Positions 5,584 through 27,913 of a DNA stretch of 43,318 nt are shown here, piece after piece; within the stretch, counting starts at the first letter, position 1; every line of letters starts with the position of its first letter. The position numbers and the translations under genes were made by a program. The notes beneath the pieces are model-generated. The model was not told the origin of the DNA. It searched no databases and saw only the letters and a list, made by a program, of their open reading frames with translations. The stretch spans positions 1-43,318 of the forward strand of contig NZCP01000040.1 of NCBI GenBank assembly GCA_002686465.1, given 5' to 3'. This stretch comes from Candidatus Woesebacteria bacterium. Its GTDB lineage: Bacteria > Patescibacteriota > Microgenomatia > UBA8517 > UBA10165.

Positions 5584-5664
5584 AGTATGTATCGGTAGTC
5601 GATAAATAAGTATACACAACGAGTTTTGCTTGCAAAAACCGAACCTGTATGTATAGAATGGGGT

Positions 5665-7185
5665 ATGATTTCTGCCCGGCGGTATTTTCTCCTTGCCTTT
5701 GCCTCGGCACTTTTCCTTGGAGGCCTCCTTTTTCATAGACAATTGTTGGCAGGCTGGGTTTTTGATACAGAACCCCCGACCTTAACGATAACGTGCGGCG
5801 GAACAGAGCTTGCTTGTACTAAAGCCGGTACCACATATAGTTGTGGTCAATGCGCAGACACAAAAGCTTTAGTAACTTGCATAGATCCACTGAGTGGATG
5901 CCAAGAATATCAGTATGATAGTGATACTGGGGGTACTTCTGGCACAAAACCTTTTGGTAGTTCATGCACCCCAGGCGAGATATGTGACGATACAATTTTT
6001 AATATAGACAAGGATATTGGTACCATTTCTATCCACGATATTATAGATTGGTCAGGAAACATATCGGAGGATAATTATGAATTTACTTTTGCCGACTGCG
6101 ATATTGATATAACAGCAGTTACTGTTGAGGAAGGAGCTACTCAGACAGCAACTGCGGTGATAACCTCTGGTTCTGTTGACCAAGTTGATTTTTCTATTAC
6201 CGATGAAAGTCCAGCTGGAACAGCAAGTGTTAACCCTGTTTCTGATTTAACTTCGCCTTATGAAACTGGTGTTACCGGTGATAAGGTTGGTACCGCAAAC
6301 CTCAACGTTTCCGGGATTGTTGGAGGAACAGAGATGTGTTCTGATGTAGCAGGGGTTACTGTGACGGCAGCTGGGGCTTGGTGGCAAGTTAAAGATGCAG
6401 ACGTTGGAGTTGCTGGGGGTCTTGTTTCTTCGATCCCTGCCGGATGTTCCGATCCTTGTGATCCAAAATTCAATCTTGTCGGAGAGGGGGGATATCCAGG
6501 GGTGAGTATTCACAGTGGTGGAACTACAGGGTTTGGAGAAGGTAGTGGTGGTGTTGTTGCAGACCCTGCTTGGATTGCAGACTCCGCCTATAACGGTCCG
6601 ACGTATGATTACGACTTCTTTGCAAGAGCCGTACCGTCTGCAGTTTTTACAGATCCTTCCTCGGTTATTACAAGCGGCCAAATCAATGGTGGTGACCTCC
6701 AATCTGGTTATTCGTCCGGAGGATATACTTGGTGGTATCGCGACGGAGATCTAATTATTAACGGGGCAGCAGTTCTTGGGGACGCTGATGTTATCATTTT
6801 AGTAACTGGCAATCTAACTATTAATAACAAAATAACAATTACTGATGGGAAAGGGTTCTTTGCAGCAATTGTTAAAGGAAATATCAACATAGATGATGGT
6901 GTTACATACACGGGGTCGCCGGCTCCAGACAGCAGTGCTGGTCCTGAACTCGAAGGTCTATATATGGCAGATGGTACGATCAGTACTGGTACGGACGGAG
7001 ACGATAAACAGCTTTATGTTCGAGGATCACTTGTTGGTTGGGGAGGTATTAACTTAGAAAGAGATTTGGGTAACGACAATGATACTACTCCAGCAGAGTT
7101 TTTTGAATATGCACCGGACTTAGTCTTAACTTTACCGAGAGAGCTTCTAAGACAAGGAGTGGTTTGGAAGGAAGTAGTTCCTTAA
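5665..7185 (+). CDS. Secreted/surface protein with Ig-like and Gly-rich beta-strand domains
   Basis: ATG 5665 then signal peptide MISARRYFLLAF; Cys pairs; GDLII/GNLTI/GNINI strands; C-terminal WKEVVP. Confidence 0.8.
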   Translation: MISARRYFLLAFASALFLGGLLFHRQLLAGWVFDTEPPTLTITCGGTELACTKAGTTYSCGQCADTKALVTCIDPLSGCQEYQYDSDTGGTSGTKPFGSSCTPGEICDDTIFNIDKDIGTISIHDIIDWSGNISEDNYEFTFADCDIDITAVTVEEGATQTATAVITSGSVDQVDFSITDESPAGTASVNPVSDLTSPYETGVTGDKVGTANLNVSGIVGGTEMCSDVAGVTVTAAGAWWQVKDADVGVAGGLVSSIPAGCSDPCDPKFNLVGEGGYPGVSIHSGGTTGFGEGSGGVVADPAWIADSAYNGPTYDYDFFARAVPSAVFTDPSSVITSGQINGGDLQSGYSSGGYTWWYRDGDLIINGAAVLGDADVIILVTGNLTINNKITITDGKGFFAAIVKGNINIDDGVTYTGSPAPDSSAGPELEGLYMADGTISTGTDGDDKQLYVRGSLVGWGGINLERDLGNDNDTTPAEFFEYAPDLVLTLPRELLRQGVVWKEVVP

Positions 7186-7188
7186 GAA

Positions 7189-7240
7189 TTCAGATTGGCA
7201 GACTTCAGATTTCGGATTGCAGATAGTCAGTTTACAGATT
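7189..7240. repeat. Degenerate ~7-bp tandem array (CAGA core), left flank of four-helix-bundle gene
   Basis: CAGA-like cores at 7191, 7199, 7206, 7213, 7220, 7228, 7235. Confidence 0.8.
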
Positions 7241-7640
7241 TCTTCTTTATGTAACTGTTTGCTGGTTCTGCGAACCTTCTCCATGTTTGGCGTAGGCTGT
7301 TCAGTTGTTTTGATAACTCCGTGTACTTTTCGACGATTGATTCGCATGCACCTTTAGGGATTTTGCGGAATCTGCGAGAGAGAATAATTGCTTTTGTTAA
7401 ATGGATAACAACTTCATCACTTTCTGCCATGGCCATTTCGTAAAATCTAGCCGCATCAGCTGGATTCCTTTGTCTTGAGAAGCCCTCTCCGATCAGTGGA
7501 GGAATGGCCTCGCTTGAGTTTATTAGCTGTGTTCTGAATTTTATATGTGGTATAGCGTATGCCACATCGTAAATTTTATCTAGGAGTCGTAGGGAGAGCT
7601 GATAGACCCGAAGATCGGACACCCCTTTTACTGATGGCAT
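7227..7640 (-). CDS. Four-helix-bundle protein (23S rRNA IVP / bAvd-like family)
   Basis: DLRVYQLS...TQLINSSEAIPPLIGEGFSRQ...RFYEMAMAESDEV resembles the family consensus DL.VWQ...Q..RSA.SI..NIAEG..R...F...A.GS..E. Confidence 0.8.
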   Translation of the reverse strand: MPSVKGVSDLRVYQLSLRLLDKIYDVAYAIPHIKFRTQLINSSEAIPPLIGEGFSRQRNPADAARFYEMAMAESDEVVIHLTKAIILSRRFRKIPKGACESIVEKYTELSKQLNSLRQTWRRFAEPANSYIKKKSVN

Positions 7641-7654
7641 GCATCTATATTATC

Positions 7655-7705
7655 AGATCTGTAGTCTGAGGTCTGATAACAGACAACTGATATCTGTTAA
7701 TCTGG
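7655..7705. repeat. Degenerate ~7-bp tandem array (TCTG core), right flank, inverted relative to 7189-7240
   Basis: TCTG-like cores at 7658, 7665, 7672, 7686, 7693, 7701. Confidence 0.8.
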
Positions 7706-7720
7706 GATTGGCAATTGAAG

Positions 7721-7936
7721 TTATTCTGCTTTTCCCTGCATTCCAAGCACCCAAAGTACTGCTTCTTTTCGATAGCGGCGGTCGCCTCTGGAGTTTATAC
7801 GAATTGCGGGAAGTTTTCCACGCTTGCCCCAACGTTTAATTGTCAACGGGGAGACACGAAGGATTTCTGCGACTTCACGAACAGTCAAAAGGTCCGGAAG
7901 TTCATCGAGTTTTAATTGCCTTTTCCCTTGCGCCAT
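7721..7936 (-). CDS. Excisionase/MerR-type HTH (HTH_17) DNA-binding protein
   Basis: LLTVREVAEILRVSPLTIKRWGKRGKLPAIRINSRGDRRY; likely start ATG 7936. Confidence 0.85.
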   Translation of the reverse strand: MAQGKRQLKLDELPDLLTVREVAEILRVSPLTIKRWGKRGKLPAIRINSRGDRRYRKEAVLWVLGMQGKAE

Positions 7937-8081
7937 AACCCAAAAAAGTGGGCAGTGCTTTCTGATACTCAATGTATCAGAAGGTGAAGAAACATGTCAA
8001 TACCCAGTTTGGGGTAATTTTCAATTTCGAGTCAAAAAGTGGAAAATACTGATACAGGATTGGTATAATTTCTCTACGACG

Positions 8082-8948
8082 ATGGCAAAGTTACTTCTGG
8101 CAAGTTTTGTGGCAGTGAGCCTTTTGTTTGCTGGATCCGTAACCCTGGCCCAAGAGCCGACTACAAACATGGGCAGTGTTGAGTCGGCAACGACTGATGC
8201 ATTGGAACAAAATTTAGTTACTCCTCTTCGCGGCCAGCCCGGGGAACTTACAAACCTTTTAAACTCCCAAGACCCCGGTAGCGTTTTTGCTAACCCTGTC
8301 AAACATGCAATTCGTTCTGCTGTTGACCATGGAGTGGCGGTAGACACAGTTGTTTTACTTTTACTCCTTCCTCTTGTTGCGGCAGTGATTGCAACAGCAC
8401 GTCATCTCGTTGGTATTCAAGGTTTTGGAATTCTTCTGCCGGCAGCGTTATCTGTAGTTTTTGTTTCAACAGGTCCGGTTGTTGGCATTGCGCTGTTTTT
8501 AGTTATTGTAATTGTGGCGACAATCGTGAGGATGTTGCTGCGAAAGTTTAAAATAAGCCTTCAATATCTTCCTAGAATGGCATTTATTTTATGGATGGTT
8601 GTTGTTGGGGTTCTTGCTGCCATGTTTTCCGCGCCTTTCATTTCCGGTCTTAATGTTGCCGACGTTTCGATTTTCCCAGTTCTTATTTTGATTCTTTTAG
8701 CCGAGGACTTTACTCGCGTGCAACTCGGGAAAAGTGTCAGAGTCGCCGTCGCATTAACAACCGAAACTTTGATTCTTGCACTCGCTTCCTTTGTGGTCTT
8801 ACAACTTAGGCCAGTTCAGCACTTTGCGCTTCTTAACCCTGAAATGTTACTTATCTTGGTTGCTATTTTTGACTTCTTTCTAGGAAAATATGCCGGATTG
8901 AGACTGTTAGAACTTTGGCGCTTCAGGAGGCTAATTGGGGCTAGATGA
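8082..8948 (+). CDS. 7TM protein of the 7TM_transglut type associated with ATP-grasp ligases
   Basis: LLLLPLVAAVIATARHLVGIQGFGILLP, LQYLPRMA and IFPVLILILLAEDF motifs; directly upstream of an ATP-grasp gene. Confidence 0.8.
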   Translation: MAKLLLASFVAVSLLFAGSVTLAQEPTTNMGSVESATTDALEQNLVTPLRGQPGELTNLLNSQDPGSVFANPVKHAIRSAVDHGVAVDTVVLLLLLPLVAAVIATARHLVGIQGFGILLPAALSVVFVSTGPVVGIALFLVIVIVATIVRMLLRKFKISLQYLPRMAFILWMVVVGVLAAMFSAPFISGLNVADVSIFPVLILILLAEDFTRVQLGKSVRVAVALTTETLILALASFVVLQLRPVQHFALLNPEMLLILVAIFDFFLGKYAGLRLLELWRFRRLIGAR

Positions 8949-10249
8949 AATTATCTTCAATCTTGGGGCTGAATGCCCGTTTCCAGCTTTATGCGTTTCC
9001 ACACAATACACCGCGTGGTAAAAGCACTGCTGCCTCGAAAGTTTTTACTAAGAAAAAGTTAAACAAAGCAGGGATTCGAACACCAGAAAGCTATGCAGCT
9101 TTCAGAAAACCTAAGAATATTATTGATTTTGACTGGGGTAAGCTGCCAGCGTCGTTTGCATTTAAGCCAAGTGGGGGTTTGGGTGGTGAGGGAATAATCG
9201 TTGTTAAAAAAAGAGCGCGTGATGGTGATGGTTGGATTACAACCCAAAGAAGGAGAGTCACCATCGACGATCTTAAACTTCATGCATTGGATATTTTAGA
9301 GGGTGCATACAACGACAGCAACATTCCGGACGTTGCCTTTTTTGAGGAGTATGTAGGGCGACATAAAGCATTTCGTAAATACGCATATCGAGGCACTCCA
9401 GATATCAGGGTTGTTGTGTTTAACAACGTTCCAGTTATGGCAATGCTTAGACTTCCCACATTAGAATCTAAGGGAAGAGCAAATATTCACCAGGGGGCAA
9501 TAGGGGTTGGTATTGATATTGCAACTGGTATTACAACGCACGCAGTTTGGCATGGAGAGACCATTAAATTTAAACCTGAAACTAAACGGAAGTTGCATGG
9601 CATTAGGATTCCTGATTGGACAGAAATCTTGAAGAGTTCAGTTCATTGCCAAAAAGTATTGAAACTTGGTTATGCTGGAGTTGATGTAATGCTCCATCCG
9701 GACAAGGGACCCATGGTGTCAGAGGTGAATTCTGCACCTGGTCTTGAGATACAACTTGCAAACATGGCGGGCTTAAGAAAACGCTTGGATAGAGTCGAAG
9801 GGCTCAAGGTTAGTAGCGTCGAACAAGGGGTGCAGCTTGCCAAAACTTTATTTGCCTCAGACTTTGCAGTACGAGTTCGGGCAGAAGATGAGGGAGTTAA
9901 AGTTGTCGATGTTTTTGAAGAGGTGAAAGTAAAATCCAAAGGTGGGAAAAAAGTTGCAGTACGAGCAAAGCTTGATACTGGGGCGTGGAGGAGTGCAATC
10001 GACAAAACGTTGGCGAAAGAACTTGGGCTATTGGAAAAAGACAATGTTTTATTAACAAGGCTTGTTCGTAGCGCATTCGGAAGGCAAAAAAGGCAGGTTA
10101 TTGATATAACCTTTTGGCTAAAGGGTCGAAGGATCAGGACCACAGCAGGAGTAGTCAATAGAAAAAGACTTAAAAACTCATTTATAATTGGGCGTCGTGA
10201 CCTTGTTGACTTCTTTGTTGTCCCACAACGAAGACAACGAGCAAATTAA
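8945..10249 (+). CDS. Alpha-L-glutamate-ligase-like ATP-grasp protein (ATPgrasp_ST type) fused to a C-terminal retropepsin-like (RimB-like) protease
   Basis: ILGLNAR, FKPSGGLGGEGI, PDIRVVV, MLRLPT, GRANIHQG, GVDVM, EVNSAPGLEIQLAN; C-terminal AKLDTGAWRSAID...IIGR. Confidence 0.88.
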   Translation: MKLSSILGLNARFQLYAFPHNTPRGKSTAASKVFTKKKLNKAGIRTPESYAAFRKPKNIIDFDWGKLPASFAFKPSGGLGGEGIIVVKKRARDGDGWITTQRRRVTIDDLKLHALDILEGAYNDSNIPDVAFFEEYVGRHKAFRKYAYRGTPDIRVVVFNNVPVMAMLRLPTLESKGRANIHQGAIGVGIDIATGITTHAVWHGETIKFKPETKRKLHGIRIPDWTEILKSSVHCQKVLKLGYAGVDVMLHPDKGPMVSEVNSAPGLEIQLANMAGLRKRLDRVEGLKVSSVEQGVQLAKTLFASDFAVRVRAEDEGVKVVDVFEEVKVKSKGGKKVAVRAKLDTGAWRSAIDKTLAKELGLLEKDNVLLTRLVRSAFGRQKRQVIDITFWLKGRRIRTTAGVVNRKRLKNSFIIGRRDLVDFFVVPQRRQRAN

Positions 10250-22348: not shown

Positions 22349-22585
22349 ATGGCTATATGTAACAGTTGTGGGAAAGGGTCTATGCGAGGTAGTCGTATTT
22401 CTCACGCACACAATGTCAGTAAACGTGTTTTTAAACCAAACCTTCACAGTTTTTGGATGGTTGAAGGCGGTCACCGCACGCGAAAAAAGTTTTGTACGAA
22501 GTGTTTGAGGAAAGTTAAGAAAGAGGTATTACAAGTATCAAAAGTACCACAGGTATCAAAGGCTCAGAATATTGCTTCAGGATAA
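22349..22585 (+). CDS. rpmB: 50S ribosomal protein L28 with repeat-derived C-terminal tail
   Basis: CNSCGK...ISHAHNVSKRVFKPNL...CTKCLR. Confidence 0.95.
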   Translation: MAICNSCGKGSMRGSRISHAHNVSKRVFKPNLHSFWMVEGGHRTRKKFCTKCLRKVKKEVLQVSKVPQVSKAQNIASG

Positions 22586-23484
22586 CCTTGTCTAAATTGG
22601 TTCCAGGAAACAGGCGATTTGCCCTCTAACTGTACTTGATCCAAGATCAATTTCCCATCTTTAGCATGTGCCCTTAAAATCTTTAATTTTCTTGTTACTT
22701 GTCCCTTGTTACTTGTTACTTTTATCTCTGTCCATGCATTTGGCCAAGGAGAAACGGCTCGAATGAAACGCTCTATGGCTTTGGGATTAGGCACCAGAGA
22801 AAACCCCTGTATATATAGTACAGACCATTTACTCTTTGCGATCTTACCGTTAAGTGCGAGTTTTACATATTTCGGGGGGACAAATCCGTATTCTTTTTTA
22901 AATAGAGTGGTGTATGTGGCTTTGTCATGTTCCTGTGCGACCGGCTTAAGTTTTCCGTCTAAGTAATCCTGGAGAATTTTTGCGAGTTCCTTTGCAGATT
23001 TTGTAAATAATCTCTCAAGTAAACTTCGGCCTGTGTCGTCATTTCTTACCTTTTCCTTGAATTGCGCAATTATTAAACCGTGATCCATTTCTTCATCCAT
23101 TTGCATTAGAGATACTCCTGTATCTCTGTCACCTGACACAATCGTCGCTTGAGTTGGGGACGCCCCACGATATTTTGGTAAAAGAGATGGATGGATATTG
23201 ACTATCCCAGAGGGGAACATATCTATTACTTTTTTGGGGATAATTCTGCCATAGGCCGCCAAGACTCCAACATCCGCTTTGACACGAATGTTTTGTAAGT
23301 CAGTGACAATTTTGACTTTATGTTTCTTTGCCCATTCTGCGACTGGGGAGTCAACTACTTCTTGTTTTCTTCCAACCGGCTTTGCCGTCTGAGTAACGAC
23401 CGCCACGATCTCGTGTTGCTTGTTTAGGGCAATTAAGATTGATAACACATAATCCGGGGTGCCAAAAAATACAACCTTTGCCAT
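22564..23484 (-). CDS. fmt: Methionyl-tRNA formyltransferase
   Basis: VFFGTPDY, AAYGRII, NIHPSLLPKYRGASP, MDEEMDHG, PWPNAW, QLEGK. Confidence 0.96.
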   Translation of the reverse strand: MAKVVFFGTPDYVLSILIALNKQHEIVAVVTQTAKPVGRKQEVVDSPVAEWAKKHKVKIVTDLQNIRVKADVGVLAAYGRIIPKKVIDMFPSGIVNIHPSLLPKYRGASPTQATIVSGDRDTGVSLMQMDEEMDHGLIIAQFKEKVRNDDTGRSLLERLFTKSAKELAKILQDYLDGKLKPVAQEHDKATYTTLFKKEYGFVPPKYVKLALNGKIAKSKWSVLYIQGFSLVPNPKAIERFIRAVSPWPNAWTEIKVTSNKGQVTRKLKILRAHAKDGKLILDQVQLEGKSPVSWNQFRQGYPEAIF

Positions 23485-25867: not shown

Positions 25868-27913
25868 TCATTTTGAGAGTTTCTCTAGCTTATTTTGTAC
25901 TTCCTCATCATCAGGGTCAATATTCTGCAAAACATATTCTAGCTGCTCTCGGGCAAGAGCTTGTTTTCCTAAGGAGTCATAAATTGTTGCAAGCCCAACT
26001 CGACCATCATAGTAGTTTGGTTTGAGGGTTACAGATTCTTCGAGCACTTCTTCTGCCCGCTCAATTTGCCCTAAGCGACCATATAAAACTCCTAAGTTGT
26101 AGCGAACCTTTGGATCGGTCGGAGCAAGCTCGACAGCTTTTTCGAGAACAGGTAGGGCTTCGTGCAGATATTGCTGATCAACTTGGACGAGTCTATATAG
26201 GATAGTAACTCGAGACTTCAAAAGATTTAAATTGTATGGGGAGATGGTAGTGGCATATCTAGAAGCTTCATTGGCTAGTTGCGCGGATGCACCGTCGCCT
26301 TTCTCTTCCAGTTCGAGTGCGATACTAGATGTAATTTTTGCAAGCTGGTCATAGTATCTTGGCTCATCTGTTCGGAGAGATAACGCACTTTCTATTCTTT
26401 CCAGGGACAGAGCATACGATCCCTCTGTAGCTAAATTTTTAGACTTTGTAAAAAGTACATCAGCGTACCAGACATGAAAGACTTTTAGTAACAGGTAACA
26501 TGTAACAAGTATCAGCAGTAGGATGCTAGCGATTTGAAGGATGGAGAATTTTTTGTTTCTACTTGTTACTTCTAACTTGTCACTTGTTACCGACCATGCC
26601 AAAGCAGGAAAGAGGAAAAATAGTATAGCGACATTGACGACCGAGAAACCAAAAAAGTTGGTAATTAAAATGGAAGCATGTCCTGCAAGCAGTGCAGGTA
26701 AAAGATTCTGGCCCGATCGAAGTCTTGAGGCTATCAACCACACAGTTGCCCCAATAAAAATGAGGTATGAGACCAAGCCAAATGTTCCTGTTGTTGCTGC
26801 AAAGTTTAGATATTCGTTGTGCGCTTTGTTATAGAGGAAGTCCCATTCGGAAGTAAGGTTATGCTCAACTGGTCGAAATTGATAATAGGAGTAGGCGAAT
26901 GTCTCAACGCCGGTTCCTGTAAGGGGATATGCTCGCCAAGTGTTAATTGCACCGTTCCATACAATCTTTCGGATTTCCCCGGATTCTGTTCCTCCGGTCT
27001 CCAACACGGTCCCCGTGTTGGGATGATTTACGGTTGGTGGTTTACGATTAATATTATTTTGTATGACTTCTGTTGCACTTGGGGTCCAGGGAGTTCCGAA
27101 AATAGTAACAAGTAACAAGTAGAAAGTGATAAGTAATAGGAAAGGGCGAGTTAGTATTTTAAGGCGATCTTTATACAACCAGGCCATAGTTAACCAAAAA
27201 ACAGCGAAGGATGCTCCAAAGCCGAGTAGTCCTGAGCGGCTTTTTGTAAATAAAATTGCTGTGAAGAAAATAATAGACATACCAATCCACCACCATTTCT
27301 TTTTAGAAATTGCAAATGCCCAAGTGATTGGAATAATAGCTGTAAGCCATGCTGCGAACCAATTCGGCTGACCCAAAGTTGCAAAGATTCGCTCTTGAAC
27401 TTTTTGTACCCAGCAGTCGACCCCAAATTCTTTTTTCATGATAATGCAACTAGGACTTGATCCGAGACGTTCTGCAATTCCCCAAATGGAAACAATTAGT
27501 GCCGAAGCGAGCAGATTACGTATTGCGCTCCTTGTCTCCTGTTTTCCCATATTTGAGACAAACGCCCAGTAAAGAAAAAGGTAGGAAATCGTTGATAGTA
27601 ATCCGCCATGCGATCGAGAGTGATATCCCCAGATAGATGTATGCTGATCAATTGAAAAAACAGTGGAGATGATTTGCGCGGTTAAAAAAAGCAAAAGAGG
27701 AATATCAAGAATAGTGCGCCGAAAGATCAGTTTTCCCCCAAGGATAGATTTTATTGCCCAGGAGGCCGTAATTACGACCGTAATTACGTACGTTAGAATC
27801 ATTTTGTTAAATTCAAAAAGCTCAGAAGTTAGAGGGGTAAAGATGAAGGGGACAAGAAAAAAAAGAAGATAAAAGGAAGATTTGATAATTCTGTCTGCTG
27901 CTTGGAATAACAT
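25868..27913 (-). CDS. O-antigen ligase-like membrane protein with C-terminal TPR repeats
   Basis: Many TM helices; RIFATLGQPN, TKSRSG, GTGVETF, KAHNEYL; TPR (AVELAPTDPKVRYNLG). Confidence 0.9.
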   Translation of the reverse strand: MLFQAADRIIKSSFYLLFFLVPFIFTPLTSELFEFNKMILTYVITVVITASWAIKSILGGKLIFRRTILDIPLLLFLTAQIISTVFSIDQHTSIWGYHSRSHGGLLSTISYLFLYWAFVSNMGKQETRSAIRNLLASALIVSIWGIAERLGSSPSCIIMKKEFGVDCWVQKVQERIFATLGQPNWFAAWLTAIIPITWAFAISKKKWWWIGMSIIFFTAILFTKSRSGLLGFGASFAVFWLTMAWLYKDRLKILTRPFLLLITFYLLLVTIFGTPWTPSATEVIQNNINRKPPTVNHPNTGTVLETGGTESGEIRKIVWNGAINTWRAYPLTGTGVETFAYSYYQFRPVEHNLTSEWDFLYNKAHNEYLNFAATTGTFGLVSYLIFIGATVWLIASRLRSGQNLLPALLAGHASILITNFFGFSVVNVAILFFLFPALAWSVTSDKLEVTSRNKKFSILQIASILLLILVTCYLLLKVFHVWYADVLFTKSKNLATEGSYALSLERIESALSLRTDEPRYYDQLAKITSSIALELEEKGDGASAQLANEASRYATTISPYNLNLLKSRVTILYRLVQVDQQYLHEALPVLEKAVELAPTDPKVRYNLGVLYGRLGQIERAEEVLEESVTLKPNYYDGRVGLATIYDSLGKQALAREQLEYVLQNIDPDDEEVQNKLEKLSK

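Follow-up and report, generated by a model that had tools for sequence, protein, structure and literature searches.

We analyzed a window of 43,318 nt (positions 1 to 43,318 of contig NZCP01000040.1 from the Candidatus Woesebacteria bacterium assembly GCA_002686465.1), in which a span of ~520 bp at 7186-7708 holds a gene of the family PF05635 (23S_rRNA_IVP) and the two arrays of heptamer repeats that enclose it. This span is probably a selfish cassette of the type of the rRNA intervening sequences (IVSs) that bear an open reading frame (ORF), here lying free between the stop codons of two convergent genes, with arms that would pair and be cut in RNA. The putative cassette consists of the PF05635 gene, an extended -10 promoter that appears to be its own, and two enclosing inverted arrays of CAGA-core heptamers. 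These parts and the two neighboring genes are as follows.

7227..7640, minus strand: PF05635 (23S_rRNA_IVP) gene of 137 aa, with ATG at 7640-7638 and TGA at 7229-7227, taken from the ORF list
7186..7245: 3' arm of seven heptamer units, with a TCTG core on the sense strand of the gene and a CAGA core on the plus strand
7655..7708: 5' arm of six heptamer units, with a CAGA core on the sense strand of the gene and a TCTG core on the plus strand, one unit being broken at ~7679
7647..7655, minus strand: TGATAATAT, an extended -10-like box located where the 5' arm ends on the gene side, with 6 nt between it and the ATG
5626..7185, plus strand: left neighbor, an ORF of 519 aa without a Pfam match, convergent with the cassette gene
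7721..7972, minus strand: right neighbor, an HTH_17/MerR-type gene that has the orientation of the cassette gene and lies upstream of it

On the plus strand, the left array has exact CAGA cores at 7191, 7199, 7206, 7220, and 7235, together with CGGA at 7213 and CAGT at 7228, giving seven units with spacings of 8, 7, 7, 7, 8, and 7. The right array has exact TCTG cores at 7658, 7665, 7672, 7693, and 7701 plus ACTG at 7686, giving six units that keep their phase across the broken one. These counts agree with the initial annotation, which had noted about seven CAGA-core units facing about six complementary TCTG-core units at a spacing of 7 to 8 bp. Its remark that the left array overlaps the end of the gene held as well, as the stop codon lies at 7227-7229 and the last five codons of the gene are covered by the array, while on its other side this arm abuts the stop codon (7183-7185) of the convergent 519-aa ORF. 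Tandem Repeats Finder reported an array at 7185-7242 (period 7, 8.0 copies, 64% matches), and the inverted-repeat pairs I5, I6, and I8 of the locus support the call of the 5' arm. The genome (0.9 Mb in 59 contigs, 42% G+C, 91% complete) contains six chains of at least three exact CAGA or TCTG cores at a spacing of 7 to 8 nt, against a mean of 0.5 and a maximum of 2 in 20 Markov simulations, and two of the six are the two sides of this gene.

Based on its profile match and its structure model, the product of the gene is a PF05635 four-helix-bundle (Avd-like) protein. The Pfam profile was matched with 47.6 bits (cutoff, 33.8; E value, 2.2e-12) over positions 2-106 of 106. An AlphaFold2 model built from 19 sequences of its clade, which was defined by protein similarity alone, down to ~25-35% identity, reached a predicted local distance difference test score of 92.8, with helices at residues 11-27, 34-55, 60-87, and 96-124. 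A search of the PDB with the protein sequence alone gave no match at an E value of ≤0.01. The top Foldseek matches of the model were the PF05635 structures 2GSC (Xcc0516 of Xanthomonas; E value, 4.6e-4; template modeling [TM] score, 0.85 on the target) and 2RLD (TM score, 0.82) and the Avd protein of the Bordetella phage diversity-generating retroelement (DGR), 4DWL (TM score, 0.81 on the target; root mean square deviation, 2.4 Å; 15% sequence identity). The fold in common with Avd that the initial annotation had claimed was therefore borne out, and PF05635 proteins are handled as Avd-like in an earlier study (PMC10053308). The likeness to the Avd of DGRs (PDB 4DWL and 8UBE) lies in the four-helix-bundle fold. 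It does not extend to the surroundings of the gene, which is flanked by the 519-aa ORF and the HTH_17 gene, with no template/variable repeat near it. Since RVT_1 had no match at an E value of ≤0.001 in the 91%-complete genome, a reverse transcriptase to go with it was not found, and a DGR role for the protein is not supported.

Judging from the flanks of its relatives, inverted heptamer arms are a general design of PF05635 genes. The genome of the window has PF05635 matches at four places, and inverted heptamer flanks were seen at three of these genes, while the remaining one is truncated by a contig end. Apart from the window copy, both complete genes have a short upstream heptamer array and its inverse downstream, with a GTAAC/GTTAC core. 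We then considered 141 further loci: 32 from a family search in 41 related genomes, 29 found by similarity to the window protein in 401 genomes of the class, and 80 from named genome records reached through a closer alignment of the family, which led only to Patescibacteria-type records. A second fetch of the window's own locus (L034) was kept outside this set, and five loci were dropped because the gene was near the end of the locus or had a broken frame (L040, L103, L120, L141, and L159). For each gene, the 95-nt stretch around its start codon was aligned to the reverse complement of the corresponding stretch around its stop codon, with the 95th percentile of 172 control ORFs taken from the same loci as the threshold. 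With start codons called mechanically in the relatives and related loci not being independent, inverted flanks above this threshold were found at 112 of 136 PF05635 genes and at 7 of the 172 control ORFs (median score, 31.5 versus 14). One locus was present twice, so that the distinct genes with inverted flanks number 111 of 135. At least one flank of 76 of the 136 genes was periodic above the control 95th percentile, and lag 7 was the best one in 92 of the 101 flanks of this kind. Thus, both inversion and 7-nt periodicity are strongly enriched in the flanks of homologs.

Outside the candidate phyla radiation (CPR), a protein search of a plasmid collection returned 30 records, of which we examined eight. 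Inverted periodic arms enclosed the PF05635 gene in six of these: Nostoc punctiforme (GTCAGGA units, with GTCAGGA/TCCTGAC arms at the gene NPUN_RS35280 on pNPUN02), Calothrix brevissima (GGGTGTA units), Riemerella, Stanieria, Gemmatirosa (with the 5' arm farther upstream), and Azospirillum lipoferum 4B, in which the element lies inside the 23S rRNA gene and has CAGAGGA/CGGAGGA units.

The history of the locus points to a unit that comes and goes. Forty relatives were searched with the adjoining 7TM_transglut protein and 19 loci were examined, only one of which (G007) contained the cassette protein. The relative with the highest ATP-grasp identity (G003) is the only other one with the 519-aa gene at the locus, and there the stop codons of the convergent 519-aa and HTH genes lie 11 nt apart with no cassette. 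The same two stop codons are 535 nt apart in the window, where the arrays and the gene take up 517 nt. By this spacing and gene order G003 is a clean empty site; no base-by-base alignment of the filled site in the window and the empty site in G003 was attainable. The copy in G007 lies behind the HTH gene: CAGA-type units come first, then a homolog of the gene with a frameshift, and then TCTG-type units. Its arms are intact, and the whole block of HTH gene and cassette is inverted relative to the 7TM gene when compared with the window. Either the cassette is old at this locus, with a precise loss in G003, or there were two separate entries behind the same gene. The closest homolog of the window protein (70% identity) was found in G013 in an unrelated genomic context, whereas the two genomes share just 45% identity in a 681-aa host protein, which fits a transfer of the cassette.

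Taken together, these loci show the gene and its arms behaving as one unit, gained, lost, and decaying jointly. The initial annotation had proposed that the arrays are the ends of a cassette, and this is supported by the empty site in G003, the syntenic copy in G007, the inverted flanks of 111 of 135 genes, and a gene-less hairpin on contig C24 of the same genome, one arm of which (G000:C24:9865-9916) is 84.6% identical over 52 nt to the 3' arm of the window (E value, 4e-4). Neither part of the opposite expectation held, namely, that the flanks of homologs would lack periodicity and that the gene would be fixed at its locus. Assembled reads of two DNA runs gave six short contigs, none of which crossed the cassette ends, and no joints.

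The right neighbor of the cassette seems to belong to the host. The 7TM_transglut and ATP-grasp pair (window 7824-10249) is conserved in 38 of the 41 genomes searched, and the HTH_17/MerR-type gene stands beside this pair, in either orientation, in 8 of the 19 loci of relatives. We considered the HTH_17 gene as a part of the cassette and rejected this, as it accompanies the 7TM and ATP-grasp genes in seven relatives' loci that have no cassette; on this distribution, it is a host gene. A generic promoter scan listed a promoter-like site upstream of it at 8000-7971. In one relative (L082 in G036, 1150-1260), the gap of 240 nt between the HTH and 7TM genes contains CAGA/TCTG-like and TTGA/TCAA-like repeats, which might be remnants of arms. 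Elsewhere (L045 in G058:C8, 1977-2072), a stretch resembling the C-terminal end of the 519-aa protein (56% over 32 aa; E value, 1.4e-5) lies directly upstream of, and co-oriented with, another cassette of the clade, which may be due to chance or to a preference for the same kind of site.

Members of the very large family PF05635, for which, to our knowledge, no function has been established, were first reported 30 years ago from the intervening sequences of rRNA. That 23S rRNA IVSs may carry ORFs and have terminal inverted repeats cut by RNase III is textbook knowledge. The initial annotation had mentioned that family members occur inside 23S rRNA IVSs, and the clade of the window protein indeed includes such copies. 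An Rfam scan of 14 of its relatives placed two inside the 16S rRNA gene near its 5' end (L044 and L061), one inside the 23S rRNA gene (L049), and three between the 3' end of the 16S rRNA gene and a tRNA gene (L037, L048, and L058). In all six of these rRNA operon copies, the ORF is co-oriented with the rRNA. The window locus itself (L034) matched no Rfam family, and so it lacks the location in an rRNA gene that is typical of an IVS. Just downstream of the 16S 3' end at L058 (535-655), near the clade cassette, a group II intron D1-D4 match was found at the gathering threshold (35.2 bits).

Of 29 clade relatives, 11 have chains of at least three C[AG]G[AT] units at a spacing of 7 to 8 nt in the 5' flank; the two sets of loci from other clades (31 and 77) have none. 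A similar arrangement is known from Coxiella burnetii, in which the helix-45 IVS (encoding S23p) has two or three tandem GACAGAT heptamers before the ORF, the number varying among strains, and RNase III makes its 5' cut at the first of these repeats, rRNA IVS stems being known RNase III substrates (PMC4990558). PF05635 ORFs in 16S and 23S insertions of CPR bacteria have also been published (PMC11270868). The CAGA core is therefore common to a gammaproteobacterium (Coxiella), an alphaproteobacterium (Azospirillum), and CPR bacteria. A core kept at 25-35% protein identity is not expected from pairing alone, and this is the best argument for a sequence-specific reader; common descent together with concerted evolution may be an alternative cause.

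The window cassette resembles rRNA IVSs in its PF05635 protein, in an ORF placed in the loop of a stem closed by terminal inverted repeats (although pairing is weak here), in tandem CAGA-core heptamers before the ORF as in Coxiella, in a total size of ~430-520 nt, and in the presence of close relatives of its protein inside 16S and 23S rRNA genes. It differs in its location between two protein genes, in the decay of its arms, and in a conserved extended -10 box that ends 6 nt upstream of the ATG.

This box, TGATAATAT, may be a promoter. Among 29 clade relatives, 10 have the pattern TGNTANNNT ending at exactly this distance from the ATG (6 nt), whereas none of 31 non-clade loci does; in one of the latter, the pattern lies at 12 nt. 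The 16-nt stretch around TGATAATAT recurs with 16 of 16 matches upstream of an L32-like gene (C17) and with 14 of 14 matches upstream of an L19-like gene (C36). Lacking a -35 match, the site was missed by the generic promoter scan. The usual spacing between a -10 box and the start site would place the mRNA start at the A of the ATG. We infer that TGATAATAT is the cassette's own extended -10 promoter and that it gives rise to a leaderless mRNA.

As an alternative to the arrays being cassette ends, the initial annotation had suggested that they pair in RNA and loop the gene out. The arms do pair with each other in the minimum-free-energy folds of both strands. The RNA of the plus strand, which would be the read-through product of the 519-aa gene, folds better than most shuffled sequences (z, -2.29; 2 of 100 shuffles as good). 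Since G-U pairs help only the transcribed strand, we compared the sense and antisense duplexes of the arms at the 112 loci whose arms were significant. Of the two, the sense duplex had the higher stability at 69 loci and the antisense duplex at 43 (binomial P = 0.018; Wilcoxon P = 0.0026), with G-U pairs making up 650 of 5667 versus 572 of 5541 pairs. By locus set, the sense duplex was more stable in 14 of 25, 17 of 23, and 38 of 64 cases, and it was so in five of the six rRNA operon copies. This lean toward the sense strand lends weak support to pairing of the arms in sense RNA. For the window copy, RNA pairing of the arrays is plausible: the two arms find each other in the predicted folds, but the stability of the sense fold (z, -0.74) does not add to the case.

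In the mechanism that we propose by analogy with rRNA IVSs, a transcript reading through the whole cassette would fold its arms into a long imperfect stem, which RNase III would then cut, and the cassette would be detached from its host RNA. An RNase III gene is present in the genome (C50:3523-3912). Such detachment would account for cassettes being tolerated in the helices and spacers of rRNA, in pilin leaders, and at gene junctions. The heptamer periodicity would offer many registers for pairing and could arise by slippage, and the conserved CAGA core suggests an additional, sequence-specific reader. In the window copy, the arms have decayed to complementarity of the cores only, which leaves the stem weak.

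A number of observations weigh against this interpretation. The sense RNA of the window copy folds no better than its shuffles (24 of 100 shuffles as good), and the antisense duplex of its arms is stronger than the sense duplex (-56.8 versus -38.2 kcal/mol). For 8 of 29 other copies in the clade, the 3' arm matches the 5' arm of the window copy no worse than the window copy's own 3' arm does. A first test of G-U asymmetry gave a null result (16 of 32 loci, P = 0.79; 236 versus 253 G-U pairs), and the sense lean seen with more loci is modest, tracks G+T content (r, -0.67 to -0.84), and comes from loci that are kin. If the cassette has its own leaderless promoter, the resulting mRNA lacks the 5' arm, so that the stem would be relevant only in read-through RNA. 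The ORF of the Coxiella IVS is probably not even translated (PMC4990558). Further, the window copy stands at the weak end of its class, with an inverted-flank score of 22 (control 95th percentile, 21) and lag-7 periodicity values of 14 and 16 for its flanks, which are not above the control threshold of 16. Two of the eight named non-CPR records, Pseudanabaena and Nostoc 7120 gamma, deviate from the design. Pseudanabaena galeata plasmid pPg_01 (L179, 46268-46627) has long arrays that are direct rather than inverted, with GCTAAAA units upstream and GCCAAAA units downstream of a four-helix-bundle gene placed between cas6 and cas4, and Nostoc PCC 7120 gamma has a 3' arm only, with an ISL3 transposase gene on the 5' side.

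The arms may instead act at the level of DNA, as the ends of a foldback-type mobile element that forms a hairpin or cruciform in single-stranded or supercoiled DNA and is moved by cut-and-paste or copying with the help of a host or cassette factor; RNA pairing would then be a by-product. We consider this unlikely. In its favor are a whole unit that is cleanly present or absent at one site, the paralogous gene-less hairpin on contig C24, two similar gene-less hairpins in two helices of a 23S rRNA gene on contig C33 (described below), and the occurrence of the closest homolog in an unrelated context at a higher identity than that of the host protein. The strand-symmetric pairing in the first G-U test and the better pairing of the antisense strand in the window copy would also follow from it. 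Yet a transposase or recombinase was seen neither in nor beside the cassette, the 91%-complete genome has no RVT_1 match, and no convincing target-site duplication was found, the sole flanking direct repeat being an 8-mer. We rejected this 8-mer, GATTGGCA (7193-7200 and 7706-7713), as a product of chance, as two other exact 8-mer pairs occur within the same 700 nt. Moreover, the arm sequences vary between protein clades to an extent that a single end-binding enzyme would not tolerate, and the co-orientation of all six rRNA operon copies, together with better sense pairing in five of them, points to RNA.

A role as protein-binding arrays, in which the cassette's own protein reads CAGA-type units on DNA or RNA for autoregulation, RNA protection, or mobility and the inversion follows from this, seems to us rather improbable as the explanation of the arms. 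The unit core tracks the protein clade (chains at 11 of 29 versus 0 of 31 and 0 of 77 loci), a neutral sequence kept for pairing only should be randomized at 25-35% protein identity, and the same core is met again in Azospirillum and in Coxiella (GACAGAT; PMC4990558). The arrays overlap the first and last codons, the solved relatives 2GSC and 2RLD list chains A-E (that is, they are pentameric), and Avd belongs to a ribonucleoprotein. Against this, common descent and concerted evolution of the repeats could keep the core without a reader, and in other subclades, proteins that are 55-70% identical carry different units. We consider it more speculative still that ring-shaped, Avd-like PF05635 proteins are sequence-specific readers of their own arms, bind the CAGA-type units on DNA or on folded RNA, and drive or protect a transposase-free cassette that moves among rRNA helices, spacers, pilin leaders, and gene junctions in at least five phyla, with the dispersed heptamer repeats of cyanobacteria, Beggiatoaceae, and Xanthomonas as its shells. 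That the arrays are ordinary genomic heptamer microsatellites which lie beside the gene by chance is hardly credible. Period-7 arrays are common in the genome, and some, which are not insertions, belong to conserved coding sequence; but inverted flanks at 112 of 136 family genes versus 7 of 172 controls from the same loci, the joint absence of the gene and both arrays in G003, and the same layout in four other phyla all speak against chance.

Genome wide, we counted 43 arrays at lag 7, compared with 3 to 12 at lags 4 to 6 and 8 to 11 (taking those that are not multiples of three). At least eight of the arrays, the C24 hairpin among them, form inverted pairs with short loops, and most of these lie exactly between consecutive ORFs. 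On contig C50 (9550-10200), two complete gene-less hairpins of the CAGA type are translated in frame as long leaders of two adjacent type IV pilin-like genes, and the leaders end just before the prepilin cleavage motif (G|FTLVELLVV and G|YTLIEILVV). On contig C33 (8100-8430), a 23S rRNA gene contains two similar gene-less hairpins of GTTAAnn heptamers in two different helices, with loops that are alike (AAAGGAATATTCC type). The three 23S rRNA copies in the bin (C4, C33, and C51) are only ~70-74% identical to each other, which implies that at least two of the rRNA contigs come from other organisms, and C33 may thus belong to another community member.

Heptamer repeats without a recognized source have been reported from other bacteria, and the short tandemly repeated repetitive (STRR) sequences of cyanobacteria are heptamer repeats as well. 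TAACTGA repeats are dispersed in Beggiatoaceae, cyanobacteria, and Bacteroidetes (PMC4679880), and GGGAATC repeats form 70-75 convergent pairs in Xanthomonas (PMC4692102), the source not being described in either case. Like the arms described here, these are tandem 7-nt units that are mostly intergenic, often directly before start codons, and that occur in convergent pairs able to form stem-loops; TAACTGA is the reverse complement of the TCAGTTA unit in the arms of the window's clade. The difference is that the published repeats are not linked to PF05635 genes (the terms "four helix" and "S23" have no occurrence in the main texts of PMC4679880 and PMC4692102), whereas here they form the arms of a gene cassette or of its gene-less shell.

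Inverted termini built of short tandem subrepeats are also found in the Foldback (FB) transposons of Drosophila and in bacterial miniature inverted-repeat transposable elements, in which gene-less derivatives outnumber gene-bearing copies. The cassette shares such termini but differs in having no transposase or demonstrated target-site duplication and in that its arm sequence is not common to all clades. In the passages covered, the two IVS papers (PMC4990558 and PMC11270868) mention heptamers for a single IVS only, as direct repeats at its 5' side, and do not give periodic inverted arms as a general design. The terms "inverted repeat" and "tandem repeat" are absent from the main text of PMC11270868, whose supplement (Table S4 and Fig. 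S3, which may list insertions bearing an intervening-sequence protein) was outside the search. A search of full texts, supplements not being covered, returned no description of PF05635 genes that lie outside rRNA and are enclosed by inverted periodic arms.

If the genes that stand free of rRNA represent the same element, then rRNA IVSs would be one habitat of a widespread selfish cassette and not a curiosity of rRNA. In that case, there may be a common source for the TAACTGA and GGGAATC repeats, the cyanobacterial STRR sequences, and the gene-less hairpins of CPR bacteria. The conserved core and the putative, likewise conserved leaderless promoter would then offer concrete handles for experiments. 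For annotation, the arms explain odd extensions of neighboring reading frames, for instance, the pilin leaders in the window's genome.

Heptamer arrays also occur in coding sequence within the window. GTAACAN arrays, one pair of them inverted, lie at 26484-26591 and 27097-27138 in the 681-aa ORF at 25868..27913 on the minus strand and at 22687-22729 in an Fmt-like ORF (22564..23484, minus strand); GTAACAN is the commonest arm unit of the genome. We considered the coding arrays in the 681-aa ORF as remnants of cassettes and rejected this, as 11 homologs have the same transmembrane and linker segments with no gap.

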